Positions 2,461-51,713 of a stretch of 64,000 nt of DNA are shown one piece after another (position 1 is the first letter of the stretch; each line of letters begins with the position of its first letter). Location of the stretch: positions 34,156 to 98,155 of the forward strand of contig JAQCIJ010000001.1 in assembly GCA_027592135.1 (NCBI GenBank), read 5' to 3'. The notes under the pieces are model-generated. The model was given only the letters and a program-made list of their open reading frames with translations, made no database searches and had not been told where the DNA came from. Made by a program: the position numbers and the translations under genes. Source of the stretch: a bacterium (GTDB lineage: Bacteria > Patescibacteriota > Gracilibacteria > Peribacterales > Peribacteraceae).

Positions 2461-2466
2461 ATACAT

Positions 2467-2664: not shown

Positions 2665-2697
2665 GCTATACTACTAATCAATTACAAAAAAATTACT

Positions 2698-3348: not shown

Positions 3349-3352
3349 CGGC

Positions 3353-3366
3353 TGAATCCTCTATCC
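3353..3366 (+). repeat. Two units of the CTATCC-family heptamer (TGAATCC TCTATCC)
   Basis: Lies between the convergent LOG-like and der genes, in the reverse orientation of the 1381-1408 repeat. Confidence 0.6.
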
Positions 3367-3369
3367 TCT

Positions 3370-3390
3370 AAAAAATGCTATGCATTTTTT
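3370..3390. terminator. AT-rich hairpin AAAAAATGC-tat-GCATTTTTT between convergent genes, a possible bidirectional terminator
   Basis: 9-bp perfect inverted repeat flanked by A and T runs. It overlaps the der stop codon. Confidence 0.3.
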
Positions 3391-4718
3391 TTAGTAATCC
3401 ACCTAATGGGTGTTCCTTCGAAGTCGAAGGTTTTGCGTAGGCTATTCTCTAAATAGCGAAGCTGGCTTACCTGTACTTGTTTCGGGTCTTTTACAAATAC
3501 CACAAATGTTGGCGGTGTTTCTTCTGCCTGCAGTATCATCTTCGACCGTGCAAGCATTCCCATTGGTTTGCCGTATACTGTTTTTTTGTACCAATCCAGA
3601 AGCTCTTTTGTCGGGAGTCTTCGTATGCGGTTTCTCTGTGTCATCTCAATAAGATCAAAGATCTTCAGTAGCCCTTCTTTGGTTTGCGCAGATACAGGAA
3701 GTACTGGGGCGCACTTCGCAAATTGGAGTTGTTGTTGTATTTCTGCAAGACGCAGATGGCGTTCTTCTGTATCCACAAGATCGATCTTATTTACCAAAAT
3801 AATAAGCCCTTTTCCTTCTTCGACTGCCATACCTGCGACGCGTTTATCTTGGCGGCTGAGTGTCTGGGTAGCATCTAAGATCAGTACTGCGACGTCACAG
3901 TACTCCAGTTCTTTTACGCTGCGAAAGTACGCGTAGACTTCGATGTCACTCTTCGTATCTTTTCTTCGTTTGATACCGGCTGTGTCCGTAAAGACATAGT
4001 CTTGTTCATGATAGCGAATAATAGTATCGATAGCGTCACGTGTTGTTCCTGGAATATCAGAAACAAGAAGAGGAGATTTCGCACGTTGTGTTTCACTCAT
4101 AAAGGCGTTAACCAATGAGCTTTTACCCACGTTTGGTTTTCCGATAATGGCAATACGAGGAAGAGCATTCTCTATTTTTGGTACCCGTTCAAAGTTTAAT
4201 TTGATCAATTCTTCTTCAATAGCTTCTTGGAGAGCATCTGTTCCATATCTGTGCGGAGCACTAATAGGAATAATACGATCAGTAATTCCTAATTGATAGT
4301 ATTCAGGCAAAATTGAATCAATTGTCCCAGGGTCATCACATTTCGTCAGTGCCATTACAATTGGCGCATGAGACTTCGTGCTCTTGCGGAGGATTTCGAC
4401 AATCTCAAAGTCGCTTCCGGTCAGCTCTTCTCTGCTATTTACCGTAAAGACAATGACATCTGCATGCTCTAGAGCAAGTTTGGATTGTTCATGGACATCA
4501 TCTTCCAGCTCTATGTCCTGCGTCCCTCCGCCCATTCCTCCAGTATCAATTAATAGATAATCGAGCTTTTCACCTTCTACTTGCCCCGCAACTTGATCTC
4601 TGGTGGTACCAGGAGTGTCTGCAACAATTGCCTTTCTGCGACCAATGATCTTATTGAAAAGTGTGGATTTGCCCGTATTTGGCCTTCCAATGATCGCTAC
4701 AGTGGGTATTTTCGCCAT
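3378..4718 (-). CDS. der: Ribosome-associated GTPase Der (EngA)
   Basis: Two tandem GTPase domains (GRPNTGKST and GKPNVGKSS P-loops; DTGG and DTAG) plus a KH-like C-terminus, 446 aa. Confidence 0.93.
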   Translation of the reverse strand: MAKIPTVAIIGRPNTGKSTLFNKIIGRRKAIVADTPGTTRDQVAGQVEGEKLDYLLIDTGGMGGGTQDIELEDDVHEQSKLALEHADVIVFTVNSREELTGSDFEIVEILRKSTKSHAPIVMALTKCDDPGTIDSILPEYYQLGITDRIIPISAPHRYGTDALQEAIEEELIKLNFERVPKIENALPRIAIIGKPNVGKSSLVNAFMSETQRAKSPLLVSDIPGTTRDAIDTIIRYHEQDYVFTDTAGIKRRKDTKSDIEVYAYFRSVKELEYCDVAVLILDATQTLSRQDKRVAGMAVEEGKGLIILVNKIDLVDTEERHLRLAEIQQQLQFAKCAPVLPVSAQTKEGLLKIFDLIEMTQRNRIRRLPTKELLDWYKKTVYGKPMGMLARSKMILQAEETPPTFVVFVKDPKQVQVSQLRYLENSLRKTFDFEGTPIRWITKKNA

Positions 4719-4805
4719 AAGTAGACCCGCAGACTATCAGATTTTTTATAGATTTCCCATAAAGAACTGTGATAAACCAGCGTGAAACTGTAGGATATTG
4801 CGCGT

Positions 4806-7292: not shown

Positions 7293-7328
7293 ACAGATGC
7301 ATGCGTGTTAGGTAACCGTGCCACTATT

Positions 7329-8147
7329 TTATGTAACAGATAACTCTGTTGGCACTACTGATGAGGCAACAGCGGATCGGTTTGATTGCAGGCTACCTTT
7401 TATCCAGGTACTGATTATCTTAGCAAGTCTTTCTGGTTGTGATACATGTGGATAATGAAATGCAGTTTCCATTGTCTCAGTTCTCATATTAGGATGATGA
7501 AGTTCTTCTTCGATATTCCAAGGATCCAGTGGAGCTTTAACAAGGAGTATTTGCACATCCTGTCTGCATTTTCTTAGTAGGTTAGCAAATGTAGGTCCTT
7601 CTCGTAGTCCCCTTAATTCTGTTTTCATACGATGACGTTCATGTTCGTAGGCTTGTTCGTGCCTTTCTAGAAATGAGCCAAAGGTTGCATCGCTCATCTC
7701 TAAGGCAAGAGGCCTGAGCATACTTTCTGCAGGTGTAGATGTATCTTCTGTTGATTTGGCTTCATTATCATTTCCATTATTCTTACTCATTTCATTCTTT
7801 GGCGGATTCAACAGTACTACAGTCTGAACTCGAGGGCACTGCTGCAGTATTTCTATCGTTCTGTGGGTTCCAAAAGAAGTTGCTATCAGTATTGTATGAC
7901 TTTGCTCGTTGATCAGTGCCACTTCTTGCTCAGTCTTATGGTGCATCCAGTCAGCTTTTTTATTGAATGTTTTAAACTCTTGATAGTGCACATCTGGATG
8001 ATCTACGTGAATTCCTTCTTTATCCAAAAGATCACAGAGCTGTTCGCGATCTCCTACTGCATCCTGAATACCAGGAATCCACAGAGCTGTATGCTCTGAG
8101 GCATGGATTTCTGGTCCAGCACTAAATCTTGGTATAGGTTCTATCAT
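7329..8147 (-). CDS. Alpha/beta-hydrolase-like hypothetical protein
   Basis: 272 aa. It has a nucleophile-elbow-like ATSFG, a C-terminal HYPHVSQPERLAKII resembling the His region of alpha/beta hydrolases, and a long polar insertion. Confidence 0.45.
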   Translation of the reverse strand: MIEPIPRFSAGPEIHASEHTALWIPGIQDAVGDREQLCDLLDKEGIHVDHPDVHYQEFKTFNKKADWMHHKTEQEVALINEQSHTILIATSFGTHRTIEILQQCPRVQTVVLLNPPKNEMSKNNGNDNEAKSTEDTSTPAESMLRPLALEMSDATFGSFLERHEQAYEHERHRMKTELRGLREGPTFANLLRKCRQDVQILLVKAPLDPWNIEEELHHPNMRTETMETAFHYPHVSQPERLAKIISTWIKGSLQSNRSAVASSVVPTELSVT

Positions 8148-8251
8148 AGACTTTTCGCGATTATTTTATATAAAATAGCCTGAAATAGCGTGTATGCATA
8201 GAAATTACTCCAGAATGTACGCCAGACTTTTATGTCTACTTTCTGGGGCAC

Positions 8252-9706
8252 ATGCTAGACTCTCAGCTCATGGACCACCCATTCGATCGATATGCGGCAT
8301 ATACCGATGTCGCTGCCCTTAAAGAGAGCAGTGCACAGCCGCTACGTAAATGCATGAGAGTGAATACGTTAAAGATGGATACAGAAGCTTTCAAAAAGTA
8401 TGCAGCGCAGAAGAACTGGAAGCTTGATCCAGTATTATGGTGCAAAGAAGGATTTTTTATAGATAGAGAAGACAGATCTGTACCTCTAGGAAAAGATCTA
8501 CTTCATCTCCTTGGTCACACCTACATGCAAGAAGCAAGTAGTATGTTGCCGGTTGCCATGCTGGACCCTCAACCCGGAGAAAACATATTGGATATGGCAG
8601 CAGCACCTGGAAGTAAATCGACACAGATTGCGGCACGTATGAATAACCGTGGGGTATTAATTGCAAACGATATGCAAGAAGCACGGCTGCAAACACTGCG
8701 CGCAGCACTGAACCGTTTGGGTGTAATGAATGTGATTGTAACTAAGAAAATGGGCCAATGGTTTGGTTCGCACATGACTGGTCGCTTCGATCGTGTGCTC
8801 ATTGATGCTCCATGTACAGGGCAGGGGACTGCTCGAAAGGATGCAGGAGCTTTAAAATATTGTTCGATAGATTCCATTGGGAAAAATGCAAAACTTCAGC
8901 GTGAATTACTAGAAGCTGCAGTACATGCGACGAACATTGGCGGACGTATAGTCTACTCAACATGCACACTCACTCCGGAAGAAAATGAAGACGTCGTCTT
9001 ATCGGTTCTTTCCAAATTTCCTAATCAGCTAGAAGTACTTGATCCTCGTAACTGCGGAGTGGATAACGAAAAGTGGAAAGTGGATAAAGCAATCGAAGAT
9101 TCCTTAATAGTGCAGCGCAGTCTTTATCCTTTATCCACTATCCACTATCCATTCCTCAGGCTTTGGCCACAAACCTATAACTCCGAAGGATTCTTCTGTG
9201 CTGTGCTCAAAAAAACAGGCCCAACCAAAGATGCAGAGAAGACCGATCTCGTAAAGCTTGATAAAGAAGTGTTGCAGAAAGGTCGCGTAAAAGAAATTTG
9301 TGAGTTCTTAGAAATGCGTTTCGGTACATCGTTTAAAAACAAAAGTGAAGTATTGCTGCAAAGCATCGAACGACTGTGGATAACCACAGAGGAAGTGTTT
9401 ACGTTCAAACTCCCCTGCTCTAATGCAGGTATTGGACTCCCCTTTGGGAAAACGCTGACCAAGTCCCCTATTATGATCGACCATGATATCGCAACTTTGC
9501 GTGGATCTGCTGTAACCAAGGGGGTTATAGATCTTACCGAAGAGCAGTGGAAATTACTTGCCCGAGGGCAGGATATCGATTGTGATCCTGAGCTTTTCGG
9601 CAAAGTACTTTTCCAATACAACGGAATCTGTATAGGAAGAGGAAATGCGAGAGAGGGTCGTTGTAAAAACCAACTTCCTCGCTGGATTGTACAAGTATTG
9701 TCATGA
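8252..9706 (+). CDS. RsmB/RsmF (NOL1/NOP2/Sun) family rRNA m5C methyltransferase with a C-terminal extension
   Basis: Motifs DMAAAPGSKSTQIA (SAM motif I), DRVLIDAPCTGQGT, YSTCTL and EGFFCAVLKK. Confidence 0.85.
   Translation: MLDSQLMDHPFDRYAAYTDVAALKESSAQPLRKCMRVNTLKMDTEAFKKYAAQKNWKLDPVLWCKEGFFIDREDRSVPLGKDLLHLLGHTYMQEASSMLPVAMLDPQPGENILDMAAAPGSKSTQIAARMNNRGVLIANDMQEARLQTLRAALNRLGVMNVIVTKKMGQWFGSHMTGRFDRVLIDAPCTGQGTARKDAGALKYCSIDSIGKNAKLQRELLEAAVHATNIGGRIVYSTCTLTPEENEDVVLSVLSKFPNQLEVLDPRNCGVDNEKWKVDKAIEDSLIVQRSLYPLSTIHYPFLRLWPQTYNSEGFFCAVLKKTGPTKDAEKTDLVKLDKEVLQKGRVKEICEFLEMRFGTSFKNKSEVLLQSIERLWITTEEVFTFKLPCSNAGIGLPFGKTLTKSPIMIDHDIATLRGSAVTKGVIDLTEEQWKLLARGQDIDCDPELFGKVLFQYNGICIGRGNAREGRCKNQLPRWIVQVLS
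9123..9150 (+). repeat. Four tandem CTATCC-family heptamers inside the rsmB-like CDS (TTTATCC TTTATCC ACTATCC ACTATCC)
   Basis: Read directly. It is translated as LYPLSTIHYP, immediately before the conserved LRLWPQ...EGFF motif. Confidence 0.9.
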
Positions 9707-33493: not shown

Positions 33494-33862
33494 ATGACAG
33501 TAGCACACGGAAGCCCTACAGATCTTTTCATCACCTTTGCTATCGATAGCATTGTTACTGATAATGAAAAACTCACTACTCATCTAAAAAGTGCAGACTT
33601 CTTTGATGCTACGACTTTCCCAGAGGCTATATTTATAGCAGATAGCTTTGTAGATTCTGGTGAAGGAATATATGCCATTACAGGAATGCTAACAATGCAC
33701 GGTGTAACCAAGAAAGAGATTGTTACTGCAAAGATAACCAGTACATATCTTACAGCTACCCATGTTATCGACCGTACAGACTACGGAATCGGTGGTCCTG
33801 CAGACGGGCTAAAAGCCGTAGATCCTGCTATTCCTCTCGACATCAAAGTAGTCTTTAACTAG
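33494..33862 (+). CDS. YceI-like domain protein, N-terminally truncated (possible gene remnant)
   Basis: DNEKLTTHLKSADFFDATTFPEA and ITGMLTMHGVTKKE are YceI motifs. Similarity (GRFEDIDFF) continues upstream of the ATG, right up to the stop of the preceding gene in the same frame. Confidence 0.6.
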   Translation: MTVAHGSPTDLFITFAIDSIVTDNEKLTTHLKSADFFDATTFPEAIFIADSFVDSGEGIYAITGMLTMHGVTKKEIVTAKITSTYLTATHVIDRTDYGIGGPADGLKAVDPAIPLDIKVVFN

Positions 33863-35829
33863 AGCGCGCCTAATTGTCTAAGAGCACTGAGTGCTCTACT
33901 GTTATTTGGATCGTATTTGAGTGCTTCGGAGAATTGCTCGATAGCTTCTTCTATCTTCTTTCTTTCGGCATACAAGATTCCTGCATTAATACGGGCAGCG
34001 ACGTATGCAGGTTGCAGAGCGATAGCTTTCTCATAGGACTCTAGTGCTTCACGGTTGCGACCGAGGCTGCGATAGGCGATACCTATATTGTAATGTGCCT
34101 GTGGAAAGAAAGGATTGATTTCGATAGTCTCGTGATACTTTGCCATACCCTCTTCAGTTCTTCCGGTATTGATATAGAGAGCACCAAGGTTAAGATGAGC
34201 TACAGGAAAGAGGGGCTGTAACTCTATGGCTTCCAAGAAAGATTCTTCTGCCTTTTGAATTTCTCCCATCTCCTGATAGGTAATACCAAGCCCTAAGTAG
34301 GCTTGAGGGTTTTTGGAGTTCAGCATCAGTGACTGCTTAAATTTGGAGGCTGCTTCTGTGAAGTTACCCTGTTCGCGGTAGGCAGACCCCAAGTTGCTGA
34401 GGATTACGGCATTAGAGTTGGCAGATAGTGCTTTATTATAAAGATGTATAGCTTGGTCGATATCTCCTTTGGTTGCCAGTGCGTTTGCGATACTTGTTTC
34501 AAATTCAGAGATAGCTACTGTATCTTGCTCACCCAGATCAGAGCCCATACGAATAGAAAGTGCTGTTCTATACGACTGCGCTGCTTCCTCAATTTTTCCT
34601 TGTCGACGGTAGAGGTTTCCAATGTTGTTGTGGGCTACGTGAGAATCTGGGTAGTAGCGAATAACATTCGTAAACAACGTTTCTGAATTTTTCCATACTA
34701 GCGATTGAACAGATGCAGTATACGAAAGAAATGCACAAAAGATCACCGTAGCGGAAACAGTGATATTTCTCAATGTATCACGCTGTGCCAATCGGTAGAT
34801 TCCAAGAGAAAGAAGTAAGAATATACCGATACTGGGGATGTAGGCATATCGATCGGATGCTATATAGTACGTTCCTGCTTTGGCAAAGTTTGGAAGGCTT
34901 GGTGCTAGGGTGATCGCAAAAAAGCCTAAGCAAAATGCAAAGATTTTCGTAAATCGCATGGAGATGAGTGTCAAAATTGCGATCAGCGCCACAATGGTAA
35001 ATGGAATCAAGAAGTCTGATGAGCTAAAGACTATTGTGTGGTGATAAGGGTAGAGCACAGAAAGATGAAGAGGTGCTATCAGTTTCTCGAGGTAAAACAC
35101 CGTACTCTTTCCTGCCATTGCAATAATTTGCACAACTGTCTCTGCTTGTAGCATTTGCGATTTACCGAAGTAGGCAATCACTGCAAAAACAAGAGCAAGA
35201 ACAAGGTACGGAACTTTCTCGAGGAGTGATTTTTTGCTCAGGGGTTTTCCTTGGAAGTAATCCATCAGAATAAGGATAACGGGCAGCGTTACAATGGTGA
35301 CCTTAGAAAGAAGCCCAAGCGTAAATGTCACAAGACTCCAGCGCGTATTATTTTGCAAATAGAACCCTGTGCTCAGGAGAAAAAAGAGTGTTGAGAGAAG
35401 ATCCTTTCTTCCACTTGCCCAAGCAATAGCTTCTGTATGAAGAGGGTGCACTAAAAATAAAACACCTGTTAGAAGGCTGACCCATGTATTTTTCGTAAGC
35501 AATCGAATAACCCACACGACAAGTGTGGCATTAAGAATATGTAGAATAAGACTATGAAAGTGATACCACACAGGGCTGGTACCGGATATCAGAAAATCAA
35601 ACTGATAGGAAAGCAGAGTAAGAGGGATATAGAGCTCTGGATCGTATGTTGTAAATATGGTCTTGATGTTTGCAAAGCTAAAGCCACGAATCGCAGGGTT
35701 TTCGTAGATAAGGAGACCATCGTCCCAACGGACGAAGCTATTCGTAAGAGATGCCCCATAGATTAGCAGCCCAATGAATGCGAAGCATCCGAGAAGGAGA
35801 TACCAATGAGATCGTAGACCTTTTTCCAT
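33859..35829 (-). CDS. Polytopic membrane protein (PMT_2/DUF1736, TMTC-like glycosyltransferase fold) with C-terminal TPR repeats
   Basis: About 11 N-terminal TM helices followed by at least 7 TPR units (AHNNIGNLYRRQGKIEEA..., AYLGLGITYQEMGEIQKA..., AHYNIGIAYRSLGRNREA...). Confidence 0.7.
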   Translation of the reverse strand: MEKGLRSHWYLLLGCFAFIGLLIYGASLTNSFVRWDDGLLIYENPAIRGFSFANIKTIFTTYDPELYIPLTLLSYQFDFLISGTSPVWYHFHSLILHILNATLVVWVIRLLTKNTWVSLLTGVLFLVHPLHTEAIAWASGRKDLLSTLFFLLSTGFYLQNNTRWSLVTFTLGLLSKVTIVTLPVILILMDYFQGKPLSKKSLLEKVPYLVLALVFAVIAYFGKSQMLQAETVVQIIAMAGKSTVFYLEKLIAPLHLSVLYPYHHTIVFSSSDFLIPFTIVALIAILTLISMRFTKIFAFCLGFFAITLAPSLPNFAKAGTYYIASDRYAYIPSIGIFLLLSLGIYRLAQRDTLRNITVSATVIFCAFLSYTASVQSLVWKNSETLFTNVIRYYPDSHVAHNNIGNLYRRQGKIEEAAQSYRTALSIRMGSDLGEQDTVAISEFETSIANALATKGDIDQAIHLYNKALSANSNAVILSNLGSAYREQGNFTEAASKFKQSLMLNSKNPQAYLGLGITYQEMGEIQKAEESFLEAIELQPLFPVAHLNLGALYINTGRTEEGMAKYHETIEINPFFPQAHYNIGIAYRSLGRNREALESYEKAIALQPAYVAARINAGILYAERKKIEEAIEQFSEALKYDPNNSRALSALRQLGAL

Positions 35830-35838
35830 GTAGCTATT

Positions 35839-36588
35839 TTAGAGCACAATTCCTACAACGTCTTTCAGAAGAACGCCAATTCCATATGCAAATATTGCTC
35901 CTATAGCTCCAACACTTACAATTTCTATAGGTCCACGCAGTAACCTCTCTCTCGTTACTATACTACGTGTAAGTCCTAGGACTATTAATGCAGCCAATGT
36001 AGACCATATGGCAAAGGTAAACCTATTGGATCGTTCTATCCCAATAAGATAAGGAATAAGTGGGATGGCTCCAAATAGTACAAAGGACACAAAGGTCATA
36101 CATCCATGAAGCAGAGGATTCTCAGTACTCTCTAATGTTAATCCATGCTCATCGAGCATCATTGTATCTGCCCAAACATCTTTATCGGAGATGATGACAC
36201 TTGTCGCTCGTTCTAGGTCTTCCCCAGTAAATCCTTTTTTCTCCAGAGCAATGACAATTTCTTCTCGTTCTATTTCAGGAATTTTCTCAATCTCTTCTAG
36301 TTCTTCTTTGCGGATTCTGTGATATTGATCACGTTCAGATTTAAGAGAAAGAAATGCACCTGTTGCCATAGAAGTTCCATCGGCAATCAAATTTGCAATA
36401 CCCAGAACAATAACGATGTAGTGCGGCATATCAGCACCGACAGTTCCAGCGACAACGGCAAAGGTCGTTACAATACCGTCATTTCCTCCATAGACAACAT
36501 CTTGGATAAATGGCCCTAGCGTATTGCCATGTGTCTCACTTTTCATGTGCTCTAGTGTTCGCTTTCGAAGAGGTGTCTGTTCATTCAT
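35839..36588 (-). CDS. VIT1/CCC1-family iron/manganese transporter
   Basis: [21 protein letters not shown] motif, an acidic cytoplasmic metal-binding stretch ([16 protein letters not shown]) and C-terminal TM helices. Confidence 0.85.
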
Positions 36589-36688: not shown

Positions 36689-37834
36689 ATGTTCAACAAG
36701 AACTTTATTACAGCATTCGTCGCTGGCATGGCTACAGTGTTCTGTGTATCGGCTGCAGCGCAGCAGTTTGGAGCATTAATGTTTCCAGATGTTGTTCCAA
36801 ATGACTACTTTTACGATGCAGTGAATCGTTTTGCAAAAAAAGGAATTGTTACTGGATACAAAGATGGTCGCTTTGGACCTCATGATTACGTTACTCGTGG
36901 ACAGGTTTCTGTTATAGTTGACCGATATGATCAGCAAGTTATTCGTCGTATGCGTGAGCAAATAGATGCTATGCGTAGTCAGTTGAGCTTAGGAAGATGT
37001 GGAGACAACGAAGTGCAGGTTGGTGAAGTTTGCGATGATGGAAATTCTCTCAGTGGAGATGGCTGCAGTGCAGAGTGCTTACAAGAGATTCATTGCTCTG
37101 GAGGATATATGATTGGAGACCGTTACCCAGCACCAGATGGTTGTAATATTTGTACATGCACCGAAGCAGGTATTGCCTGTACAGAAACAGCGTGTACACA
37201 AAAGAAGTGTTTCAGCAGTGGAGAATGTGGACAAAGTGAAGTGTGCTCTGTAGAGGAAGGGGATTGCAGGTACCCTTGCCCAATAGGAGCTGTCTGTATT
37301 CAGGCATGTGCAGGCGTATGTATTCCACAAACAGCTACGATCATCTGTGGAAATGGTGTGTGTGAAGAAGGGGAATCTGCAGTGCCAGATCGAACAGGTT
37401 TGCTGCTTTACTGCCCACAAGATTGTGAACTTGCAGGCCCTGTCTGTGGAGATGCAGTCTGTGATTCTGGAGAGGCTGATGAGTACCGACTTGGTGAAGA
37501 CGGCCCTATCCTTATTCGTCGAGGGGTATGTGCTACAGATTGCGAGGGAGGCTTGAGTGCTTGCGAACAAAAGAAGAAGAGTATCGACGTGATATTTGCA
37601 AAGAATCTCAGCTGCCAGACCGATACTGATTGTGCTGTGTTTTCACGAGGGTGCAGCCCATATCAGACTTGCGGAAAGCCAATTCTTCGCTCTTCATTAT
37701 TACAAGTATCTGCAGCAGTTTTTGGATATGTTGATGAATGTGAAACATCAGAGCCCGCTCTGTGTGCTGGATGTTTGCCAAATAGCGCGGTCTGCATCAA
37801 TGGCCTTTGCGAGATATTCCAAGAAGAGCTTTAA
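36689..37834 (+). CDS. Secreted SLH-domain protein with cysteine-rich repeats (DUF4215/Myxococcus-type and VWC-like)
   Basis: Signal peptide, then the SLH motif FPDVVPNDYFYDAVNRFAKKGIVTGYKDGRFGPHDYVTRGQV, then CGDNEVQVGEVCDDGNSLSGDGCSAEC and many further Cys-rich modules. Confidence 0.75.
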   Translation: MFNKNFITAFVAGMATVFCVSAAAQQFGALMFPDVVPNDYFYDAVNRFAKKGIVTGYKDGRFGPHDYVTRGQVSVIVDRYDQQVIRRMREQIDAMRSQLSLGRCGDNEVQVGEVCDDGNSLSGDGCSAECLQEIHCSGGYMIGDRYPAPDGCNICTCTEAGIACTETACTQKKCFSSGECGQSEVCSVEEGDCRYPCPIGAVCIQACAGVCIPQTATIICGNGVCEEGESAVPDRTGLLLYCPQDCELAGPVCGDAVCDSGEADEYRLGEDGPILIRRGVCATDCEGGLSACEQKKKSIDVIFAKNLSCQTDTDCAVFSRGCSPYQTCGKPILRSSLLQVSAAVFGYVDECETSEPALCAGCLPNSAVCINGLCEIFQEEL

Positions 37835-38724
37835 GAAATAGTTTTTGCAAATGCATTGCGCGTCACTGCATAGAGACCTGCAATACTTACAAGGATTACT
37901 ACCCAGACACCAGCACCCGTCTCTGGTTGTCGAATCGGGCCTCTGCCTTCGCGAATAACATTTGCAGCTACTGCACTTTGTGGAGCATCGCTTGGATCAT
38001 CACCAAATGCTTCGGGGATAGGATTTCCAGCACCATCAAATGGATGAATCCGTTCACTGCCTACTGCGTAAGGGTTTGTAGGAAGGCCAGTATTTTGTGG
38101 AGGTGGAGGTGGGGAAAAATCAAGTGGATTAAAATTATCAGCATTACTCGGTGGTGGCGTTGTAGTTCCTACAGGTTCTGCAAAAAAATCATTTCCAATG
38201 ATTGCATCAATATCGATAAAGTTATCTACTGTTTGTGTAACGACAACAATTTCTCCAATCAATTCACTAGATATAGAAGAGAAATACTCATATCTTCCAG
38301 GTTGAATATCTGGAGTGATAGTAAATTTATCTGAATCCCCATAAAAAAGTGTACTTGTCATAAGGCAAAATCCTGTATCACTACAGAGGGTTTCAGATTC
38401 AATAATATGGGGCATGTCTTGATCATTTACAAAGATAATTGTTTGACCATGCTCAACTTCTGCACTTGCAGGAAAAAATCCATCAGTAGTAATGCGTATA
38501 GTTTGCTCCAATCCTTCACCTGCCAGTTGCCCTGTTACGTTATCTAATCCACGGAAAAAGCCAAATCCAATGCCAATAACAACCAGCATTCCTACAAGTG
38601 CTGCAGGACGTCGGGAAATTTGCATTCCAGAAAGATCACCTTCTTGAGAAGGTTCAATCTGCTTGATGGTCACCGGTACCGGCTCATCATCTTCAGACTG
38701 CCAAACTGGATCAATATTATTCAT
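37831..38724 (-). CDS. Membrane-anchored cupredoxin-like domain protein with a Pro-rich linker and a C-terminal QPETG sorting-signal-like tail
   Basis: N-terminal TM, a beta-sandwich-like segment (IRITTDGFFPASAEVEHGQTIIFVNDQDMPHII), and a C-terminus of RQPETG + hydrophobic helix + basic residues. Confidence 0.6.
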   Translation of the reverse strand: MNNIDPVWQSEDDEPVPVTIKQIEPSQEGDLSGMQISRRPAALVGMLVVIGIGFGFFRGLDNVTGQLAGEGLEQTIRITTDGFFPASAEVEHGQTIIFVNDQDMPHIIESETLCSDTGFCLMTSTLFYGDSDKFTITPDIQPGRYEYFSSISSELIGEIVVVTQTVDNFIDIDAIIGNDFFAEPVGTTTPPPSNADNFNPLDFSPPPPPQNTGLPTNPYAVGSERIHPFDGAGNPIPEAFGDDPSDAPQSAVAANVIREGRGPIRQPETGAGVWVVILVSIAGLYAVTRNAFAKTIS

Positions 38725-40213
38725 GAGGATTTTTATTGCTAACCGTTAGCTGTCTTCGAGAAGCAAATGAAGTACCAATAATTGCAGATCCAACAAGGAA
38801 CAATACTACAGCAGAAGGGAGGCCTGTTTCTCCTGGTACTGGAGTTGGTTCAATTTCGTTCAAGATATTTGCTACCGGGTTTTTTCCAGGTCCATCACTT
38901 ATAGATCCTGCTACAAGTGGAGCACTAGAAGAATCTGGATCTCCAACAACAATCGAAACCTCACGGCTAAAAGCACTCTCTTCATCTTGTTTACTGAGAG
39001 CTCTTACTGCAAAGTAATAGCGCTTACCAATTTCGAGAGATCGAATCGTTAGACTATTTTCACTTTTATCAATAGTACGACGTTGCATATAGCGACCTGA
39101 GGTTTTGCTGTAGTATACAGTATTTGCCTTAAGCTGAGAGCTTTGCAGTGCATCCCAAGCGAGGAATACAGAGCTTCCGTCAGTGGTAACACGAACGTTA
39201 CGAATTTGCAAAAGAGCAAATGCTGTACGATTATCTGCAGTATCTGGATTATTTCCTAAATTTGGTACACAGATCCCACTTCCACAGAGACTGCTTTCGC
39301 ATTGATTATCTAATGCACAGTCTGCTCCATTTGGAAACAAGCTCACTGTTTCTTTGCACTGTCCTGCTTCACAGGTTCCCCCTTCGCAGTCCTCATCTCG
39401 TACACAAGCATTAGGGTCTACTTCGGGGATAGGCTCAGGCTCAGCATCTGTTTCTATATTTTCTGGGAAATTGTCGAAGATATTTCCAATAGTGTCTTCA
39501 TTACTTTCTGTAGGTTCTACATCTTCTGTTGGCTCAAGGCTGTCTTCGGCAAACTTGACGATTAATACACCTGGCTCCTCTTTTACAATGTAAGACTCTT
39601 CTCCGTCATCCTTACCAATAATGACACTATGGCCTTCAGGTTGGACATCGTAGAATGTAATTGGTGTACCAATAGAGTTTGTTTCTTTTACGAGAAATTG
39701 AATACGTGCAAAGAGAATCTTTTTTTCTTTCTCCACATTCCCATCTGCTGTAGCTTCCATCTTTGCATACCCTTCTCCTGAAGAGAAATCCTTTTCATCT
39801 GGTGTGACGATACCAAACTTTTCACTAATACTGATTGATTGCCCTTCTAGAATGTTTGGGTCATAGGAGAGCCATGCACGCACACGCTCGATGCTTTGAT
39901 TGTTTGGATTATCAATCACAAGATCTATATCTAAAATATCTCCTTTGCGTAGAGGTCTTGTACGGAGTGTTTGAGGATCTTCTATCTCGAAGCTAGAACA
40001 ACGCACTTCGTCTATAACACGTGTCTCTACTACTATTCCAGGACTTGGAATAGGGCCAAATAACCATTCTTCATCTGTATTTTCTCGCTCGATACAGTGC
40101 GGATGCAGTTCAAATGTTGCATCTTGAGTTGCTGCATCCACAGGTGTAGGCATTATACTGATAATTAATGCAGCGAGTATGCTCAGCCGATGCTTGCAAG
40201 AGTAGGTATACAT
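38717..40213 (-). CDS. Surface protein: cohesin-like domain, Cys-rich module, FN3 domain and a C-terminal PGETG sorting-signal-like tail
   Basis: Signal peptide. Cohesin-like pattern (ILDIDLVIDNPNNQSIERVRAWLSYDPNILEG...ILFARIQFLVKE). FN3-like (VRVTTDGSSVFLAWDA...YYFAVRAL). C-terminus VPGETG + TM + SRRQ. Confidence 0.6.
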   Translation of the reverse strand: MYTYSCKHRLSILAALIISIMPTPVDAATQDATFELHPHCIERENTDEEWLFGPIPSPGIVVETRVIDEVRCSSFEIEDPQTLRTRPLRKGDILDIDLVIDNPNNQSIERVRAWLSYDPNILEGQSISISEKFGIVTPDEKDFSSGEGYAKMEATADGNVEKEKKILFARIQFLVKETNSIGTPITFYDVQPEGHSVIIGKDDGEESYIVKEEPGVLIVKFAEDSLEPTEDVEPTESNEDTIGNIFDNFPENIETDAEPEPIPEVDPNACVRDEDCEGGTCEAGQCKETVSLFPNGADCALDNQCESSLCGSGICVPNLGNNPDTADNRTAFALLQIRNVRVTTDGSSVFLAWDALQSSQLKANTVYYSKTSGRYMQRRTIDKSENSLTIRSLEIGKRYYFAVRALSKQDEESAFSREVSIVVGDPDSSSAPLVAGSISDGPGKNPVANILNEIEPTPVPGETGLPSAVVLFLVGSAIIGTSFASRRQLTVSNKNPHE

Positions 40214-40224
40214 AAGAGAAGTAT

Positions 40225-40551
40225 TTACTGAACAGAGAGTGTAGAGAGGATGCCAATCGCATCATCTACAGTCAGTTGGCCGTCCTGATTAGGATCAGCC
40301 TTCAGTTGATCGGTAGTAGCACTTCTATATCCTTGAGCGACTTCCAAGATAATAAGGACATCACTCATATCAATAGCGCCACTTCCATCGACGTCTCCAA
40401 CAAAAGGTGCACCTCCTGCTTGAATGAGAGAAACAGGTTGTACATCTCCTGCTGTTTGAATGCCAACCAGAAATGAGCCAATAATGCATGCCATGCCAGT
40501 GGCAAGCAGCTTAAGGTTCCTTCTGAGGGAGTGTGGGTATTTGATATACAT
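40225..40551 (-). CDS. Small membrane-anchored dockerin-domain protein
   Basis: 108 aa: N-terminal anchor plus two Ca-binding dockerin repeats (GDVDGSGAIDMSDVLIILE and ADPNQDGQLTVDDAIGIL). Confidence 0.7.
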   Translation of the reverse strand: MYIKYPHSLRRNLKLLATGMACIIGSFLVGIQTAGDVQPVSLIQAGGAPFVGDVDGSGAIDMSDVLIILEVAQGYRSATTDQLKADPNQDGQLTVDDAIGILSTLSVQ

Positions 40552-40635
40552 ATCATGTTATTATAGCAAGAAACTCGCATTTTGTGGATAGTGCATGGGT
40601 TGAAACATATATACAAATGTTGTTTAATAATATGA

Positions 40636-40650: not shown

Positions 40651-41613
40651 ATGTCTCAAGTATTTTTATTCTCAGGCGAAAATCTCTATGAGATGACCCA
40701 AGAGAAACAGCGATGGATTAGCGGTTTTATTGATAAACACGGCCAAGAAAACCTTACGATTTTTGATGGAAAGAAGCTTTCAGCAAAGCTTTTAAAGGAT
40801 GAATTAGCTGCATCTCCATTTATCGCTGAAAAACGACTTATAGTGATAGAGGGGATTCTAAAGATGGAAAAAGGAGAAATGCTCCAGCTGCAAGATGTTA
40901 TTCATCCACAAAATATACTACTATTTGTTGACTCAAAGCCTGACAAACGACTCTCAAGTACAAAAGAACTTTTGACTATTGCAAAGATACAGTCGTTTAG
41001 TCCGATAAGAGGAGATCGTCTTATAGGATGGCTAATACAGCAGGCAAAAACGTCTGGATCTTCACTATCTACAGATAGTGCAAGACATCTGATAGACACA
41101 GTAGGGGAAGATCAGATGCTGTTGGTTTCAGAAATACAAAAGCTTGCAACATTTACAGGTTCTGGCTCTATAAATTACGAAGCCATTGATGCGCTGGTTA
41201 TGCTAAGTGAAGAACAGGTCGGATGGAAATTGATGGATTTACTTTCGCTTGGCAAAAGAGATGAGGCAATACATTTTGCACAGGAATTATTACAAAAGGG
41301 AGAGAGCCCCTATGCCTTGTGGGGCAAATTACTCTGGCTTGTTTTGCAACTTACTCTCGTCTGCGCAGCACTTGATGATGGTATAGCAGCTCCACCGGCT
41401 ATCACCAAAAGCACAGGCATAAGCTTTGGAACTGTAAAAACAGTACTACCGCTTGCTAGAAAAATGGATAGAGCAAAGCTGAGCAACATTGTTTCTCAGT
41501 TCGTCCTTACAGACAAAGCTTTAAAAACCGGAGGATATAAATCTACTGTCGAAGCACCTGAAGAACTTCTATCTATTATTGATCAATCTATTGTCATGCT
41601 TAGCGGATCATAG
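40651..41613 (+). CDS. holA: DNA polymerase III delta subunit
   Basis: 320 aa with an N-terminal VFLFSGEN...L, a clamp-loader delta-like layout and a C-terminal helical domain. Confidence 0.75.
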   Translation: MSQVFLFSGENLYEMTQEKQRWISGFIDKHGQENLTIFDGKKLSAKLLKDELAASPFIAEKRLIVIEGILKMEKGEMLQLQDVIHPQNILLFVDSKPDKRLSSTKELLTIAKIQSFSPIRGDRLIGWLIQQAKTSGSSLSTDSARHLIDTVGEDQMLLVSEIQKLATFTGSGSINYEAIDALVMLSEEQVGWKLMDLLSLGKRDEAIHFAQELLQKGESPYALWGKLLWLVLQLTLVCAALDDGIAAPPAITKSTGISFGTVKTVLPLARKMDRAKLSNIVSQFVLTDKALKTGGYKSTVEAPEELLSIIDQSIVMLSGS

Positions 41614-41994
41614 TTGTTCAATCTTTTTCAGGAGATCCTCTGTCTGTATATTTTCTTCTCTTTCATGAATCTCTTCTTGCTCGGATCGCTCTTCTCGACG
41701 TCCTTTAATAGAGGCTTCTGTTCTTGCGATTAACTCTTTATTGTTATTATTTCCAATCTGAGCACTATATTTATCATCGATAGCCGCTAATTGCTTCTGT
41801 TCATTATTAAGGATATCTCTAAGGTTTTGTAATTGCTCTGGTGTCATTATTGGCATGATGTTTACCCAATATTGCCGTTCTTCGTCATTCATACTTTCGG
41901 ACTGAAGAATGAGTGCTATAAGATCTGGAAACTTTGTACGAAGATCGTCAGAAATAGTCACTCCAGACGCCGATCCTGATGAATCATCTTTCAT
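41608..41994 (-). CDS. Hypothetical coiled-coil protein
   Basis: 128-aa ORF immediately downstream of greA on the same strand. No motif recognised. Confidence 0.5.
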   Translation of the reverse strand: MKDDSSGSASGVTISDDLRTKFPDLIALILQSESMNDEERQYWVNIMPIMTPEQLQNLRDILNNEQKQLAAIDDKYSAQIGNNNNKELIARTEASIKGRREERSEQEEIHEREENIQTEDLLKKIEQL

Positions 41995-45934: not shown

Positions 45935-46765
45935 ATGCACCGTGCTGCGTGGATCATTGGCCTTCTTCTGATAGTTCCAACTGCCAGAGCAGGGGATTGG
46001 GAAAAATTTTCAACTGACCTCGAACTTTTTGAGCAGTTGATTGTAGATGATCAATTGCAAATGCAGATACAACAAGAGGATGCTGAACTAGAAGATAGTG
46101 CAGATCTTTTTCCAGGTGAAGAAGAGGAAGAAGCAGCTGTAACAGGAGAAGAAGAAAAATTTACAACGATCTCTGTCGACGGAACAGATGTTCTTCTTTC
46201 CGATGTACCTACAGAAGAGTGGTTTTCTGAATATGTAGTAAAAGCTGCACAACTCAATTTAATATCAGGATATCGCGATAGCGAAGGTAAACCGACAGGG
46301 GAGTTTGGCCCAGAAGATTATGTTACTGTAGAGCAGCTCGCAAAGATGGCTATTATTGCTGCAGGTATTGATACGTATAACTGTGGAGATACGTTGATCA
46401 ACACCACTGCAAAAGGACGGTGGTCTCAGAAGTATATCCAGTGTGCAGAGCATCTTGGATTTGCCGTATTTAGTGATGGCAGTATAAAAGTCACTAAACC
46501 TGCTCATAGATCAGAGGTAGCTATCACCGTACTGCAGGCATTCTCTGTGCGCATAGCACCAGTGTCTGGTTCTATCTTTGAAGATGTAACAAGGGCAACA
46601 CCCTACGGAAATGCTGTAGAGACTATGTCCCGCGATGGAGTTGTTTCTGGATACACGCAAAGTAATGGAAATCCTACGGGATACTTTGGACCATCTGACC
46701 CTGTAAACCGAGCGGAGACTGCAAAGATATTCTCGTTGTCTTCTCAGACATACGGCACGCGTTAA
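45935..46765 (+). CDS. Secreted protein with SLH domains
   Basis: Signal peptide, an acidic linker, then SLH-like repeats (SDVPTEEWFSEYVVKAAQLNLISGYRD...; FEDVTRATPYGNAVETMSRDGVVSGYTQ...NRAETAKIF). Confidence 0.75.
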   Translation: MHRAAWIIGLLLIVPTARAGDWEKFSTDLELFEQLIVDDQLQMQIQQEDAELEDSADLFPGEEEEEAAVTGEEEKFTTISVDGTDVLLSDVPTEEWFSEYVVKAAQLNLISGYRDSEGKPTGEFGPEDYVTVEQLAKMAIIAAGIDTYNCGDTLINTTAKGRWSQKYIQCAEHLGFAVFSDGSIKVTKPAHRSEVAITVLQAFSVRIAPVSGSIFEDVTRATPYGNAVETMSRDGVVSGYTQSNGNPTGYFGPSDPVNRAETAKIFSLSSQTYGTR

Positions 46766-48025: not shown

Positions 48026-49351
48026 CTACAAACGACGGGGGATTAGCGTGTATGCAAGTGAGAGAGTCAATAGAGAAGCTGGAAGCAGCATTTGACGATC
48101 AAACGACTGACCAATGATGAGATACTCAGTATTTGCAGTAAGAAGATACACTCCCATATATCCAGCCATTGCTATCAAGCCCCAGAGCATTGTTATGAGA
48201 TATCGCCGATCTATGTGGACTGTATTTTTTTGCATACCAATAATCATCACAACCAGAATGACAATCACAGCATACCAATACATACCAAAGGATCCTGTGA
48301 CAAACATTGCTTTACTAAAGGCAGAGACTGCTTCTGTATTTATAGTAAACTGTGTATCTCCAGATCCGTGAGGCGTAAGAGATAAGGTATGGAATCTTGC
48401 AAACACAGGCCATGATAGTGAGAGCAAAATAGCAAAGGCAACGGGGTACCGCATACTACTAATCGATCCTGCTTTTCGCACCAGGATGATACTCATCATG
48501 ATAATCCACGGTATGTAGCAAAAGAAGATTCCGTCTGATTTAGTCCACACAGAGGCGCATACAAATAGCCCAGAGAGCATAAGCATACGTGGGTCATCTG
48601 ACCTCCTATATTCTAGGAGAAAGATCAGACTAAGAAGTGCAAAGCTTACAAGTGTAATATCTGCGTAAGATTGTCCTGTATGAATAGTCATTAATGGAAT
48701 CCCAACAATGAGTGCCATTGCACACAGTGCATACGATCTTCCTCTACGAGAGAGAAAGAAGAAAACTACACCAAGAGAAGAAAGTGTCAGGAGAAGATGA
48801 ATAGAATTAGCAGATAAATCGCTCCAAATAGGGCTAAACTGATTAATGCTAATCTGCAATGAGTGATACAAGAATGGGTAGTTAGGCTTACTCACTAATC
48901 CATCTCGTGTATCAAATACAATTGCACTATCATAGAAAGATACTTTCGACCGCATGTTCCAGTTGGTTGTGCTGTCGTAGTGGAATGTAGGTAGTAGTGC
49001 ATGTGATACTGCATAGCAGGTTGATGATGCGAGTATAAGCACAGAGATCACTGTAAGAATTATGGGAATCTTAACGACAGAAACTTCTGATATAGATTCA
49101 GAACTTTTAGTTTTAATTAAGGGCTGAACGGATATTAGAAACATACCAGTACAGCATAGATTACTGATGATTATACTTAGTGCACTCAGTTCAATTTGAG
49201 CAAGTGTCAGGAGGATAAATGCTAACAGATTTATCAATGCAGCGAGAGGCAATGCTAGTAGAAGCTCTAGTAGAACTCCATAGTCTTGACGAAGAAGACG
49301 ATGGGAAACCATCCATCCTTCTGCCAATAATATTAGAGTCATAAATATCAT
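48026..49351 (-). CDS. Polytopic integral membrane protein (possible GT-C-type glycosyltransferase; function unassigned)
   Basis: 441 aa, at least 10 hydrophobic helices, 4-nt overlap with the upstream gene. Confidence 0.55.
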   Translation of the reverse strand: MIFMTLILLAEGWMVSHRLLRQDYGVLLELLLALPLAALINLLAFILLTLAQIELSALSIIISNLCCTGMFLISVQPLIKTKSSESISEVSVVKIPIILTVISVLILASSTCYAVSHALLPTFHYDSTTNWNMRSKVSFYDSAIVFDTRDGLVSKPNYPFLYHSLQISINQFSPIWSDLSANSIHLLLTLSSLGVVFFFLSRRGRSYALCAMALIVGIPLMTIHTGQSYADITLVSFALLSLIFLLEYRRSDDPRMLMLSGLFVCASVWTKSDGIFFCYIPWIIMMSIILVRKAGSISSMRYPVAFAILLSLSWPVFARFHTLSLTPHGSGDTQFTINTEAVSAFSKAMFVTGSFGMYWYAVIVILVVMIIGMQKNTVHIDRRYLITMLWGLIAMAGYMGVYLLTANTEYLIIGQSFDRQMLLPASLLTLSLAYTLIPRRL

Positions 49352-50316
49352 ATATTGTTTTGATACAGGGCTGAACCATCATTATATTTCTTTATAAAGT
49401 TCACAGAAAATTGTTTTTCATTACATCGTAATTCTTTACCGTCAATAGACCAATTTGTAGATTTATAAATGATAATATAGTCGGGTTTATCATCAGAGAT
49501 GATTACAGGGTACGCATGATATTGCAGAAGTTTACTGGCATACGTTGTTCCTGTATGACAGAGATATGCGGAACGAGCCTTTTCCCCTATCAGATTTTGT
49601 GCAATTTCTGGAAGTGAGCCTGCAGTAGAATACGTCTTATGAAGAAGCCACTCTGCTGAATGATCTATACTTAAGCGAAGAACATCAATAGAAAACCGTG
49701 CTTGTGTAATCAGTACAATGATAATGCTTACAGGGATAATCATCTGTTTTTTTCTGGTAAGGATTAAGAAAACTACTATGAGGATCATTCCTAATCCTAA
49801 AACTACTGTAAGTGGTATGCCTAAAATGCTGTACCCAGGCAGGCGATGATACGAGGCTGGTGAGTAGGGTTGCATTATCATCGCATGATGGATTGCAGTT
49901 GAAAAAACGGTGATCAGTGATGCTTGATTGAATTCAATATCATGAAACTGAGCACCAGTTTTGCTATTACTAAAAAAGTAGAGTCGATAGGATTGCTCCA
50001 CGGGTTGCCATGCGGGGCTCTTTGTAAGATCAATAGTTGCCTCTTGCATACTTCCTTCTGGAAGTACTGTTTGTAATGTGTCAAAAGTATTGAAAGAGCC
50101 GTCACGACCTTTGAACATCACAAATAACGATAAAGGCTCAAGGGTTGAGTACTTCAACGTTACAGAACCGCCTTTTCCTTTGATATCTGCACTCGCATGA
50201 GAAGCAGACTGAGAAACGACTTCCTCGATTGCAATATCTTCGGAAAGTAATAACACAGGAGCTTCACCTGCAAAGGCGTAAGGGGTAAAGAGGAGAAATA
50301 GTGAAAAAGCCCACAT
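49348..50316 (-). CDS. Hypothetical membrane protein: signal peptide, extracytoplasmic domain, TM helices and a cytoplasmic domain
   Basis: 322-aa ORF, translationally coupled to the downstream polytopic membrane protein. Confidence 0.55.
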   Translation of the reverse strand: MWAFSLFLLFTPYAFAGEAPVLLLSEDIAIEEVVSQSASHASADIKGKGGSVTLKYSTLEPLSLFVMFKGRDGSFNTFDTLQTVLPEGSMQEATIDLTKSPAWQPVEQSYRLYFFSNSKTGAQFHDIEFNQASLITVFSTAIHHAMIMQPYSPASYHRLPGYSILGIPLTVVLGLGMILIVVFLILTRKKQMIIPVSIIIVLITQARFSIDVLRLSIDHSAEWLLHKTYSTAGSLPEIAQNLIGEKARSAYLCHTGTTYASKLLQYHAYPVIISDDKPDYIIIYKSTNWSIDGKELRCNEKQFSVNFIKKYNDGSALYQNNI

Positions 50317-50519: not shown

Positions 50520-51713
50520 TTAGATTGGAAGTGCCGCAGGAGCAGGCCCTGTAACAGTTCTCGACTCACGTTCACCAACCTGTAGGGCAATTCCTGTAGT
50601 AGGATCTACCTCCTGTGCAGTAAGAATTAATCGTCGTAGGGTGGTTCCTACTGGTGTACAAGTCATAAGTGTAGCCATTCGTCTATTGGATGGCTGATCC
50701 AGTACGTCTACATTACTTGGTTTAACTTCTTTCTTTCCTTGAATAATATATCGGTGCTTATCACCTCCGTAATATATCCAGTACTCGTCTCCAACATTTA
50801 GCTCGTGAAGCCGAGCAAACACAGTTTTAAACTGTCCATCAGCCCAAGGGTAGTATGAGCTGTGACCTGTAACAAAGAAGTTACCGGCTTGTCCAGGCCG
50901 TGCTGTCCCTGGATAGTGCACTACTCCATGTTTTAGTGCATCTTGAATGTCTGACTCTACACCTTCCCAGTCTTCTTTAAGTAGACTGCTGTATGATGGT
51001 GTGACTAGTGGGATATTGAGTCCCAGACGTGGAACAATAACACGGTTCTCTGGAGGTCCAACTGTAGGAAGATAGCTCAGCATATCCCCTTCTTCCCTAC
51101 CTGCAACTGCAAGCATTGGGCTCTTAAGAAGCTTCTCTTTTAGGGCATTATCTACTTCGGATACATTTCCATTCAGAGAGGATACGCGCTCTACAGGGTC
51201 AAGATACGGTGAGATAATTTGAAAGAAGCTCTGATAATTAAGTGATACAAAGAGCACGACAAAGATGCTGGCAAAGGTTCCTCCAAAGCGAACAACATCT
51301 AGAGCAAACAGAGACCCCCGGCTGTATTCCTTTGCAGATTTATTCTTTTGGACGACCCAAACAGGTTGTGCAAGAAATCCCCAGATTCCATCTAGTCCTC
51401 CTGAAAATATCTTTTTGATATCAGATATATGGAATGTAAATCCTTTGTAGCTGTGAATGTATTGGCTTTTTCCTTCTGATACTATGTTCTTTGTTGTTCC
51501 CATCAATTTTCCTCGTACTACCTTTAGAACACTAACAACTTGCTCACATCGATCTTGTACAACTTCTGTTTTCCGTGTTTCTTGTACGAGCTCATCAGCA
51601 TCGGTTACTTCCCATGCAGTATTTTTCTTTAGTGTAGGCTGAATGCGCGAGATATGCTCAGGTTCTGCTTTCTGTTCTCTAGGGCCAATATGGATATGGC
51701 CACTTTCATCCAC
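50520..51713 (-). CDS. Sortase-family transpeptidase with a long N-terminal extension and TM anchor
   Basis: Catalytic contexts FFVTGHSS (His), ATLMTCTP (TLxTC Cys) and TLRRLILTA (Arg). The TM segment is FGGTFASIFVVLFVSL. Confidence 0.85.
   Translation of the reverse strand: MDESGHIHIGPREQKAEPEHISRIQPTLKKNTAWEVTDADELVQETRKTEVVQDRCEQVVSVLKVVRGKLMGTTKNIVSEGKSQYIHSYKGFTFHISDIKKIFSGGLDGIWGFLAQPVWVVQKNKSAKEYSRGSLFALDVVRFGGTFASIFVVLFVSLNYQSFFQIISPYLDPVERVSSLNGNVSEVDNALKEKLLKSPMLAVAGREEGDMLSYLPTVGPPENRVIVPRLGLNIPLVTPSYSSLLKEDWEGVESDIQDALKHGVVHYPGTARPGQAGNFFVTGHSSYYPWADGQFKTVFARLHELNVGDEYWIYYGGDKHRYIIQGKKEVKPSNVDVLDQPSNRRMATLMTCTPVGTTLRRLILTAQEVDPTTGIALQVGERESRTVTGPAPAALPI

Follow-up and report, generated by a model that had tools for sequence, protein, structure and literature searches.

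A conserved dockerin, cohesin–FN3 and cupredoxin-fold gene trio of Peribacteria as a possible enzyme-free complex of the cell envelope

Cohesin and dockerin modules are known above all for linking the parts of cellulosomes; many genomes also encode such pairs outside cellulosomes, few of them with a known role. What might such a pair do where neither partner carries an enzyme? The question is raised by three tightly packed minus-strand genes in a 64,000-nucleotide (nt) stretch of contig JAQCIJ010000001.1 (the whole stretch is hereafter the window), which we name g1 for the dockerin protein, g2 for the cohesin–fibronectin type III (FN3) protein and g3 for the cupredoxin-fold protein. A preliminary description of the window had given the positions of these genes, an 8-nt overlap of g2 with g3 and a set of peptides, all of which are present in the sequence; the open reading frames (ORFs), checked in the window, encode 108, 498 and 297 amino acids (aa), respectively, and 11 nt separate g1 from g2. 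Homologues of g2 carry Peribacteria or Peregrinibacteria names, within the candidate phyla radiation (CPR), and the source lineage is Peribacteria. The answer that we favour, at somewhat better than even chances, is that the trio forms one operon building a small, non-enzymatic cell-envelope complex specific to Peribacteria. No description of the operon was found by searching the literature; public annotation labels the relatives ‘dockerin type I repeat-containing’, ‘fibronectin type III domain-containing’ and ‘cupredoxin domain-containing’. The genes and their parts are:

40225 to 40551, minus strand: g1, 108 aa (ORF; Dockerin_1 match)
40447 to 40509, minus strand: hydrophobic segment of g1, residues 15–35, with a conserved small-residue ladder
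40228 to 40398, minus strand: dockerin module of g1, residues 52–108, with two 12-residue calcium loops and a helix after each
38717 to 40213, minus strand: g2, 498 aa, with a cohesin, a Cys-rich module, an FN3 domain and a sorting-type tail (ORF, Pfam, AlphaFold2, Foldseek)
39548 to 39988, minus strand: cohesin-fold beta sandwich of g2, residues 76–222 (AlphaFold2 predicted local distance difference test, pLDDT, above 90; Foldseek)
39254 to 39415, minus strand: two Cx5Cx4Cx4C disulfide-rich repeats of g2, residues 267–320 (pLDDT about 87–93)
38939 to 39232, minus strand: FN3 domain of g2, residues 328–425 (fn3 match)
38720 to 38839, minus strand: tail of g2, residues 459–498, comprising VPGETG, a membrane helix and RRQ
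37831 to 38724, minus strand: g3, 297 aa (ORF, Pfam, AlphaFold2, Foldseek)
38239 to 38508, minus strand: cupredoxin fold of g3, residues 73–162 (pLDDT above 90)
37834 to 37938, minus strand: tail of g3, residues 263–297, comprising P263..[Q]-P-x-T269-G270, a hydrophobic helix and Arg

The arrangement is strictly kept in relatives. A locus scan with one genome per species yielded 80 loci, nearly all labelled Peribacteria or Peregrinibacteria; with local hidden Markov models (HMMs), g2 is held by 79 distinct loci, and the adjacency of g1 and g3 was counted where flanking DNA suffices. Consistent with conservation of the whole trio, g1 lies directly upstream of g2 in 75/75 loci with upstream DNA (including L023, where an apparent miss reflects an over-extended ORF start) and g3 directly downstream in 71/71 loci with enough DNA. 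Because each of the three proteins is a member of a conserved family and the gene order is kept in all of these loci, the three ORFs are not a product of chance. In the related loci, the gaps between g1 and g2 are mostly 3–36 nt and the overlaps of g2 with g3 mostly 4 or 8 nt, the latter suggesting translational coupling. The strict adjacency of g1 and g2 would be hard to explain without a functional link between them. The length of g1, about 108 aa, is maintained even where the identity of g2 is as low as about 36%.

The g1 protein consists of a basic N terminus, a hydrophobic helix, a conserved juxtamembrane stretch (TAGxVQP..LIEAG) and a two-repeat dockerin. The Pfam model Dockerin_1 (PF00404) scores 23.0 bits on the window copy, against a threshold of 22.9, and matches 50 of the 74 g1 relatives when each family member is scanned; EF-hand models also match about 58% of them (43/74). 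When the family profile is searched against the PDB, solved dockerins outrank EF-hand proteins, and both repeats align to the type-I dockerins 2y3n_B (E = 1.8e-6) and 6kgc_B (E = 4.4e-6). As in type-I dockerins, g1 has a duplicated segment of about 22 residues, each with a 12-residue calcium loop and a helix. The loops read D53-V-D-G-S-G-A-I-D-M-S-D64 and D86-P-N-Q-D-G-Q-L-T-V-D-D97, and positions 1 and 12 of both (D53, D64, D86 and D97) are invariant across 74 sequences. Neither in g1 nor in its orthologues, which span about 91–175 aa, is the dockerin appended to a catalytic or structural cargo: beyond it there is just the N-terminal hydrophobic segment. This segment is conserved at C/S22, S/A26, F27, G30, T/S33, A34 and G35, with F27 and G30 invariant in 74/74 sequences by column counts. 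For the N terminus, a signal-anchor is one reading, favoured by the invariant helix face, and a long Gram-positive-type signal peptide cleaved after T-A-G the other; this region matches no NCBIfam model even at E ≤ 10. Two other export signals were considered for g1 and rejected: a twin-arginine (Tat) signal, as the position of the second Arg varies among K, R and Q within the family, and a lipoprotein lipobox, as Cys22 is replaced by Ser in 28/74 relatives.

The putative partner of this dockerin is the cohesin of g2. The Pfam model Cohesin matches 82 of 90 g2 relatives at E ≤ 0.01 (lowest E 3.4e-10), and fn3 (PF00041) matches 86 of the 90, scoring 28.4 bits on the window copy against a threshold of 25. 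The AlphaFold2 model of g2 (mean pLDDT 81.5, with residues ~70–222, 270–320 and 330–425 mostly above 90) resolves into a beta sandwich, a small module rich in disulfides, the FN3 domain and a helix at the C terminus, as well as a disordered, acidic linker of 45 residues. An extra N-terminal strand (residues 32–38) is probably tied to the cohesin domain by a conserved cysteine pair, C40–C72. The best Foldseek match in the PDB is 2w1n, the cohesin–FN3 double module of Clostridium perfringens GH84C (E = 1.7e-12). Solved cohesins match at template modelling (TM) scores of 0.6–0.75 (4uyq_A 0.75, 3ul4_A 0.69, 1aoh 0.68), and FN3 domains at 0.72–0.83. A PDB sequence search with the g2 profile returned FN3 matches plus a single weak cohesin match (4ums, E = 0.22), and the cohesin assignment therefore depended on the predicted fold. 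The same solved complexes (4uyp/4uyq, 6kgc–6kgf, 2ccl, 1ohz and 5lxv) are matched by g2 at chain A and by g1 at chain B. FN3 is the best-conserved domain of g2 (mean column identity 0.74); the Cys-rich repeats differ in number and type across the family, with DUF7107, EB and DUF4215 matches among its members.

The third protein, g3, begins with a conserved N-terminal motif and a membrane helix, followed by the cupredoxin-fold domain, a Pro-rich linker, a PxNPY(T/A)V motif and a tail made of QPETG, a helix and Arg. The preliminary description had seen the linker and the tail and had overlooked the N-terminal motif and helix. In the AlphaFold2 model, membrane helices span residues 39–66 and 271–291, residues 73–162 form the single confident domain and the remainder is disordered. 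Cupredoxin_1 matches 39 of 60 g3 relatives, and the domain resembles plastocyanin and amicyanin at TM scores of about 0.7 (Foldseek). Two short motifs stand out beside these domains: M..HP.W.S.D..VPV, at the cytoplasmic N terminus (residues 1–15, 38680–38724), with W8 invariant, and the extracellular PxNPY(T/A)V (residues 212–221, 38062–38091), with N217 invariant and P215 and P218 nearly so.

Both g2 and g3 end in tails that had been described as sorting-signal-like, and their layout is in keeping with this: VPGETG, 21 hydrophobic residues and RRQ in g2, and QPETG, 18 residues and R in g3, neither being LPXTG. Such tails occur within the window on g2 and g3 only. The g2 tail is among the best-conserved parts of the protein, with the consensus V-P-G-[E/A]-T-G-x-[P/S]-[S/T], then a helix carrying S476, A477, G480, T481 and A484, then R-R-Q; G461, T463, G464, G480, T481 and Q488 are invariant in 90/90 sequences. 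AlphaFold2 places the helix at residues 467–489, and its window span is 38747–38815. In the g3 tail, P263 is kept in 59/60, T269 in 55/60 and G270 in 60/60 sequences. The window also encodes a sortase, about 10 kb from the trio and not adjacent to it, which is a candidate processing enzyme for these tails as judged from its sequence:

50520 to 51713, minus strand: sortase gene, 397 aa (PF04203, 79.9 bits; TIGR01076, 52.8 bits against a cut-off of 39.35)

Its catalytic His, Cys and Arg motifs are present (GHSS, LMTCTP and RR), and a sortase, along with S-layer genes, has been reported in the Peribacteria genome paper (PMC4736985). About 220 aa at the N terminus of the window's sortase form an unusual extension that includes one hydrophobic helix, and the protein cannot be placed in any named sortase class. 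Downstream of it on the same strand lies a gene for an uncharacterized 322-aa membrane protein (49348–50316, minus strand), followed by one for a PMT_2-like protein of 441 aa (48026–49351, minus strand).

Taken together, we propose the following scheme for the operon. The g2 protein has a classical signal peptide for export and would be held at the surface by its C-terminal VPGETG–helix–RRQ tail, so that from the anchor outward it would present the FN3 domain, the disulfide-rich module, the flexible acidic linker and a single cohesin. The g1 dockerin would bind this cohesin, and g3, whose cupredoxin-fold domain we read as a binding or spacer module, would be made together with g2 through the overlapping stop and start codons. 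The tails would be either cut and attached to the wall by the sortase about 10 kb away or retained as packed membrane helices. Either way, the product would be a scaffold at the cell surface that serves structure or adhesion, and neither a cellulosome nor an electron carrier.

Several observations weigh against this scheme. Although the four domain assignments of the preliminary description hold with family-level profiles and predicted folds, the Pfam test on the window copies upheld only two of them: Dockerin_1 and fn3 exceed their thresholds, whereas Cohesin (PF00963) scores 20.6 bits on g2, under its threshold of 24.1, and Cupredoxin_1 scores 25.6 bits on g3, under 27. Covariation between g1, g2 and g3 (mutual information with average product correction, 54 non-redundant triples) gave top scores that were alike for every domain pair, the lack of a domain-specific signal arising because shared ancestry dominates. 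Were g1 to remain in the membrane, the two partners would be poorly placed to meet: only about 18 residues separate its dockerin from the helix and the cohesin is the part of g2 most distant from the g2 anchor, so that g2 would have to fold back via its 45-residue linker. Our view of the genome spans 64 kb, and dockerin-bearing partners may be encoded elsewhere. As for anchoring, the tail motifs differ from canonical LPXTG, the isolated g2 and g3 tails match no NCBIfam sorting-signal model even at E ≤ 10, and the g2 helix is kept more strongly than one would expect of a part lost on sortase cleavage.

The last of these points also bears on the likeliest alternative, an integral-membrane heterotrimer in which g1, g2 and g3 associate mainly through their membrane helices and the xTG motifs are juxtamembrane contacts left uncut by sortase. 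Each protein has a ladder of small residues spaced by three others, with an invariant Gly in each across 60–90 orthologues: residues 22/26/30 in g1, 476/480/484 in g2 and 41/45/49/53 in g3, where the N-terminal helix (38527–38613) conserves A41, A42, G45, V49 and G53. Ladders of this kind are usual in helices that pack together, not in signal peptides that are cleaved off or in sorting helices that are lost, and here they hint that the three proteins may pack together in the membrane. In the same direction, the g2 helix is conserved like the cohesin domain itself (mean column identity 0.61 and 0.60, respectively), the juxtamembrane stretches TAGxVQP..LIEAG of g1 and VPGETGxPS of g2 are conserved, and LPXTG models leave the tails unmatched. 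By contrast, the layout of g2 and g3, a TG-ending motif followed by about 20 hydrophobic residues and a basic C terminus, is that of classic sortase substrates; an intact sortase is encoded nearby; small-xxx-small motifs are commonplace in membrane helices; and the C-terminal helix of g3 is poorly conserved (0.38). On balance we hold an uncut heterotrimer to be possible and rather unlikely. Because the sortase-type layout and the nearby sortase stand against the non-LPXTG motifs and the helix ladders, we keep two anchoring models, sortase-mediated wall attachment and a retained bundle of membrane helices, which on this sequence evidence are both open and are not mutually exclusive.

A further alternative concerns the partner of the g2 cohesin, which could be a surface anchor for other dockerin proteins encoded elsewhere, much like the scaffoldin ScaE. 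In that case g1 would not be the main partner; it might be secreted and serve as a small dockerin cap or regulator of the cohesin, or it might be a plain calcium-binding peptide. The N terminus of g1 would suit a long signal peptide of Gram-positive type, its small residues T-A-G standing ahead of a potential cleavage site, and EF-hand models match about 58% of g1 relatives. Support also comes from a Gracilibacteria contig (JANQMV010000050.1, positions 1–8400, GC content 34%), the weakest locus match of our scan (L086), which reads correctly only under genetic code 25, where UGA is a sense codon. Its g2 homologue (cohesin 32.6 bits, fn3 25.2 bits, C-terminal helix) is encoded beside large proteins with C-terminal dockerins: the locus encodes a large surface protein with a C-terminal Dockerin_1 (31.4 bits), a 1,513-aa protein with half a dockerin and a 186-aa cohesin-only protein, as well as a g3-like protein that lacks the cupredoxin domain. 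A cohesin–FN3 protein beside dockerin-bearing proteins in this sister lineage supports a cohesin–dockerin function, and the comparison suggests that the Peribacteria trio may be a reduced version of such a cluster, its dockerin without cargo.

For Peribacteria themselves, the evidence points away from other cargo. An HMM built on the dockerin alone revealed no further dockerin, either in the 64-kb window or across about 1.1 Mb of flanking Peribacteria sequence. Among 1.8 billion representative proteins, the closest matches to g1 were many single-domain proteins of about 80–175 aa, at 44–64% identity, and longer proteins, multi-dockerin ones among them, were more distant, at 31–45%; P0195 (900 aa; Dockerin_1, PKD and PG_binding_1), the only longer one traced, lies on a non-Peribacteria contig. 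Proteins retrieved with the g1 dockerin include P0175, P0176 and P0177, of 836–2,637 aa, with 8–11 tandem dockerin-like repeats. Together with the invariant adjacency of g1 and g2, these results make an anchor for other cargo improbable, at about one chance in five.

Could g3 be a blue-copper electron carrier, and the module an extracellular redox system? Matches to Cupredoxin_1 and Copper-bind, ‘plastocyanin’ among the source names of relatives and the plastocyanin/amicyanin fold would favour this, but a residue-level alignment to 1baw and 4r0o shows the Cys ligand replaced by a nearly invariant Ser149, the second, C-terminal His by Ser152 and the Met by Leu; the first His ligand, H106, is retained in the window clade and is Gln in many relatives. 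With three of its four type-1 copper ligands substituted, g3 is not, judging by its sequence, a blue copper or redox protein. The redox reading is effectively refuted, and the label ‘cupredoxin-like’ in the preliminary description holds for the fold and not for the copper site.

A miniature cellulosome or amylosome that degrades polysaccharide, suggested by the mere presence of cohesin and dockerin modules, is just as hard to credit, as g1 brings no cargo with its dockerin, the trio contains a single cohesin, and the neighbours in all relatives are housekeeping genes (holA, greA and carB). That no carbohydrate-active enzyme is attached had already been noted from the window; Pfam and NCBIfam scans of the three proteins found no carbohydrate-active, carbohydrate-binding (CBM) or other catalytic module in any of them. 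An enzyme-free pair in a housekeeping neighbourhood with invariant gene order points to a basic structural or attachment role in the envelope. The preliminary description had raised attachment in an episymbiotic lifestyle as a possibility; the Peribacteria genome paper gives no evidence for a host-attached lifestyle (PMC4736985).

The surroundings of the operon combine a conserved frame with a clade-specific insertion. The genes carB, greA, a small ORF and the divergent holA around the trio are also syntenic in relatives. The small ORF between holA and greA (41608–41994, minus strand) encodes an acidic, coiled-coil-like protein of 128 aa with a weak Abi_alpha match, and an ORF of 103–138 aa is called at the same position in relatives. 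On the other side of the trio and just upstream of it lie the following features:

36689 to 37834, plus strand: SLH/Cys-rich neighbour (SLH 41.3 bits against a threshold of 20.8; DUF4215/myxo_disulf repeats)
35839 to 36588, minus strand: VIT1 iron-transporter homologue
33859 to 35829, minus strand: PMT_2 (protein mannosyltransferase-like) and TPR protein
40560 to 40588, minus strand: promoter-like site, TCCACA, a 17-nt spacer and a TG-extended TATAAT (consensus scan only)

The convergent SLH/Cys-rich gene named in the preliminary description is indeed present, its stop codon overlapping that of g3 by 4 nt. As a part of the module it was rejected: it occurs in the closest relatives only and, on sequence comparison, appears to be a clade-specific insertion. 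In relatives without it (L001), VIT1 and then the PMT_2/TPR protein follow directly after g3 on the same strand, and a link of the PMT_2/TPR protein to glycosylation of the Pro/Ser/Thr-rich linkers is possible. A second SLH-domain protein is encoded near the trio (45935–46765, plus strand). The promoter-like site terminates 9 nt upstream of the g1 ATG, and no obvious Shine–Dalgarno sequence precedes that start codon; the operon transcript may be leaderless. The number of promoter-like sites in the region was not above shuffle expectation in the consensus scan.

In its most ambitious form, which we rate at roughly one chance in four, our proposal would make the trio a core, lineage-defining envelope machine of Peribacteria, with a glycine-ladder bundle of three helices, a calcium-dependent clamp of mini-dockerin and cohesin, and tails that tie the membrane to the wall. 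Such a machine may have derived from larger, cargo-bearing clusters as in Gracilibacteria. If it exists, cohesin–dockerin chemistry would be used for envelope architecture, or host contact, and not for enzyme display. More immediately, the pair is a small, easily expressed subject (about 70 aa and about 200 aa) for the study of non-cellulosomal cohesin–dockerin binding, and would, if the two do bind, offer a compact orthogonal affinity pair. The tails provide a candidate non-canonical sortase signal for CPR bacteria, and the trio itself a marker operon for Peribacteria, a CPR lineage not yet culturable.

How does the trio compare with systems that are already known? The best structural match of g2, C. 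perfringens GH84C (NagJ; 2w1n), likewise has a non-cellulosomal cohesin directly preceding an FN3 domain, and its cohesin binds the dockerin of another secreted protein in a calcium-dependent manner (dockerin 2jnk/2ozn). There, however, the cohesin–FN3 unit belongs to a large glycoside hydrolase and a different enzyme bears the dockerin, whereas neither g1 nor g2 carries an enzyme, the dockerin is a protein of 108 aa and g2 has a membrane or sorting tail. The cellulosomal type-I complexes (1ohz, 2ccl, 4uyp/4uyq and 6kgc) resemble the trio in that g2 matches their cohesin chains and the g1 profile their dockerin chains, with two EF-hand-like calcium loops and a helix after each. They differ in having a multi-cohesin scaffoldin, CBMs and enzymes, and identity to them is just 12–21%; the residues that set specificity cannot be compared. 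Type-1 blue copper proteins (plastocyanin, amicyanin and pseudoazurin) share the fold of g3 residues 73–162; g3 differs in its replaced ligands, two flanking membrane helices and long Pro-rich linker.

Among anchoring proteins, Ruminococcus flavefaciens ScaE is a single-cohesin scaffoldin that is linked to the wall by sortase and tethers a dockerin-bearing partner (PMC5301203). Like g2, it combines one cohesin with a C-terminal sortase-type signal, but this signal is a canonical LPXTG and its partners are the XDoc modules of large cellulosomal proteins (ScaB and CttA); g2 instead has VPGETG, an unusually conserved helix, extra FN3 and Cys-rich modules and, presumably, a stand-alone dockerin as its partner. 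The Gracilibacteria locus L086 keeps g2 and g3 homologues in the same order as the trio, and differs in its use of code 25, in tails that read PQNGP and QSGP in place of xTG, and in having its dockerins on large surface proteins, with no 108-aa dockerin. Within the CPR, the Saccharibacterium Southlakia epibionticum has essential envelope proteins with dockerin and FN3 domains, SEML1_0315 and SEML1_0890 (PMC10633639). It belongs to another phylum-level lineage, with no reported operon containing a cohesin, and is likened to the trio by domain content; by this analogy, dockerin and FN3 modules can matter in CPR biology. Judged by such likenesses, the closest functional analogues of the trio would be ScaE-type single-cohesin anchors and the C. 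perfringens cohesin–FN3/dockerin system, and the operon is best read as a variant of non-cellulosomal cohesin–dockerin systems that would act by the mechanism proposed here.

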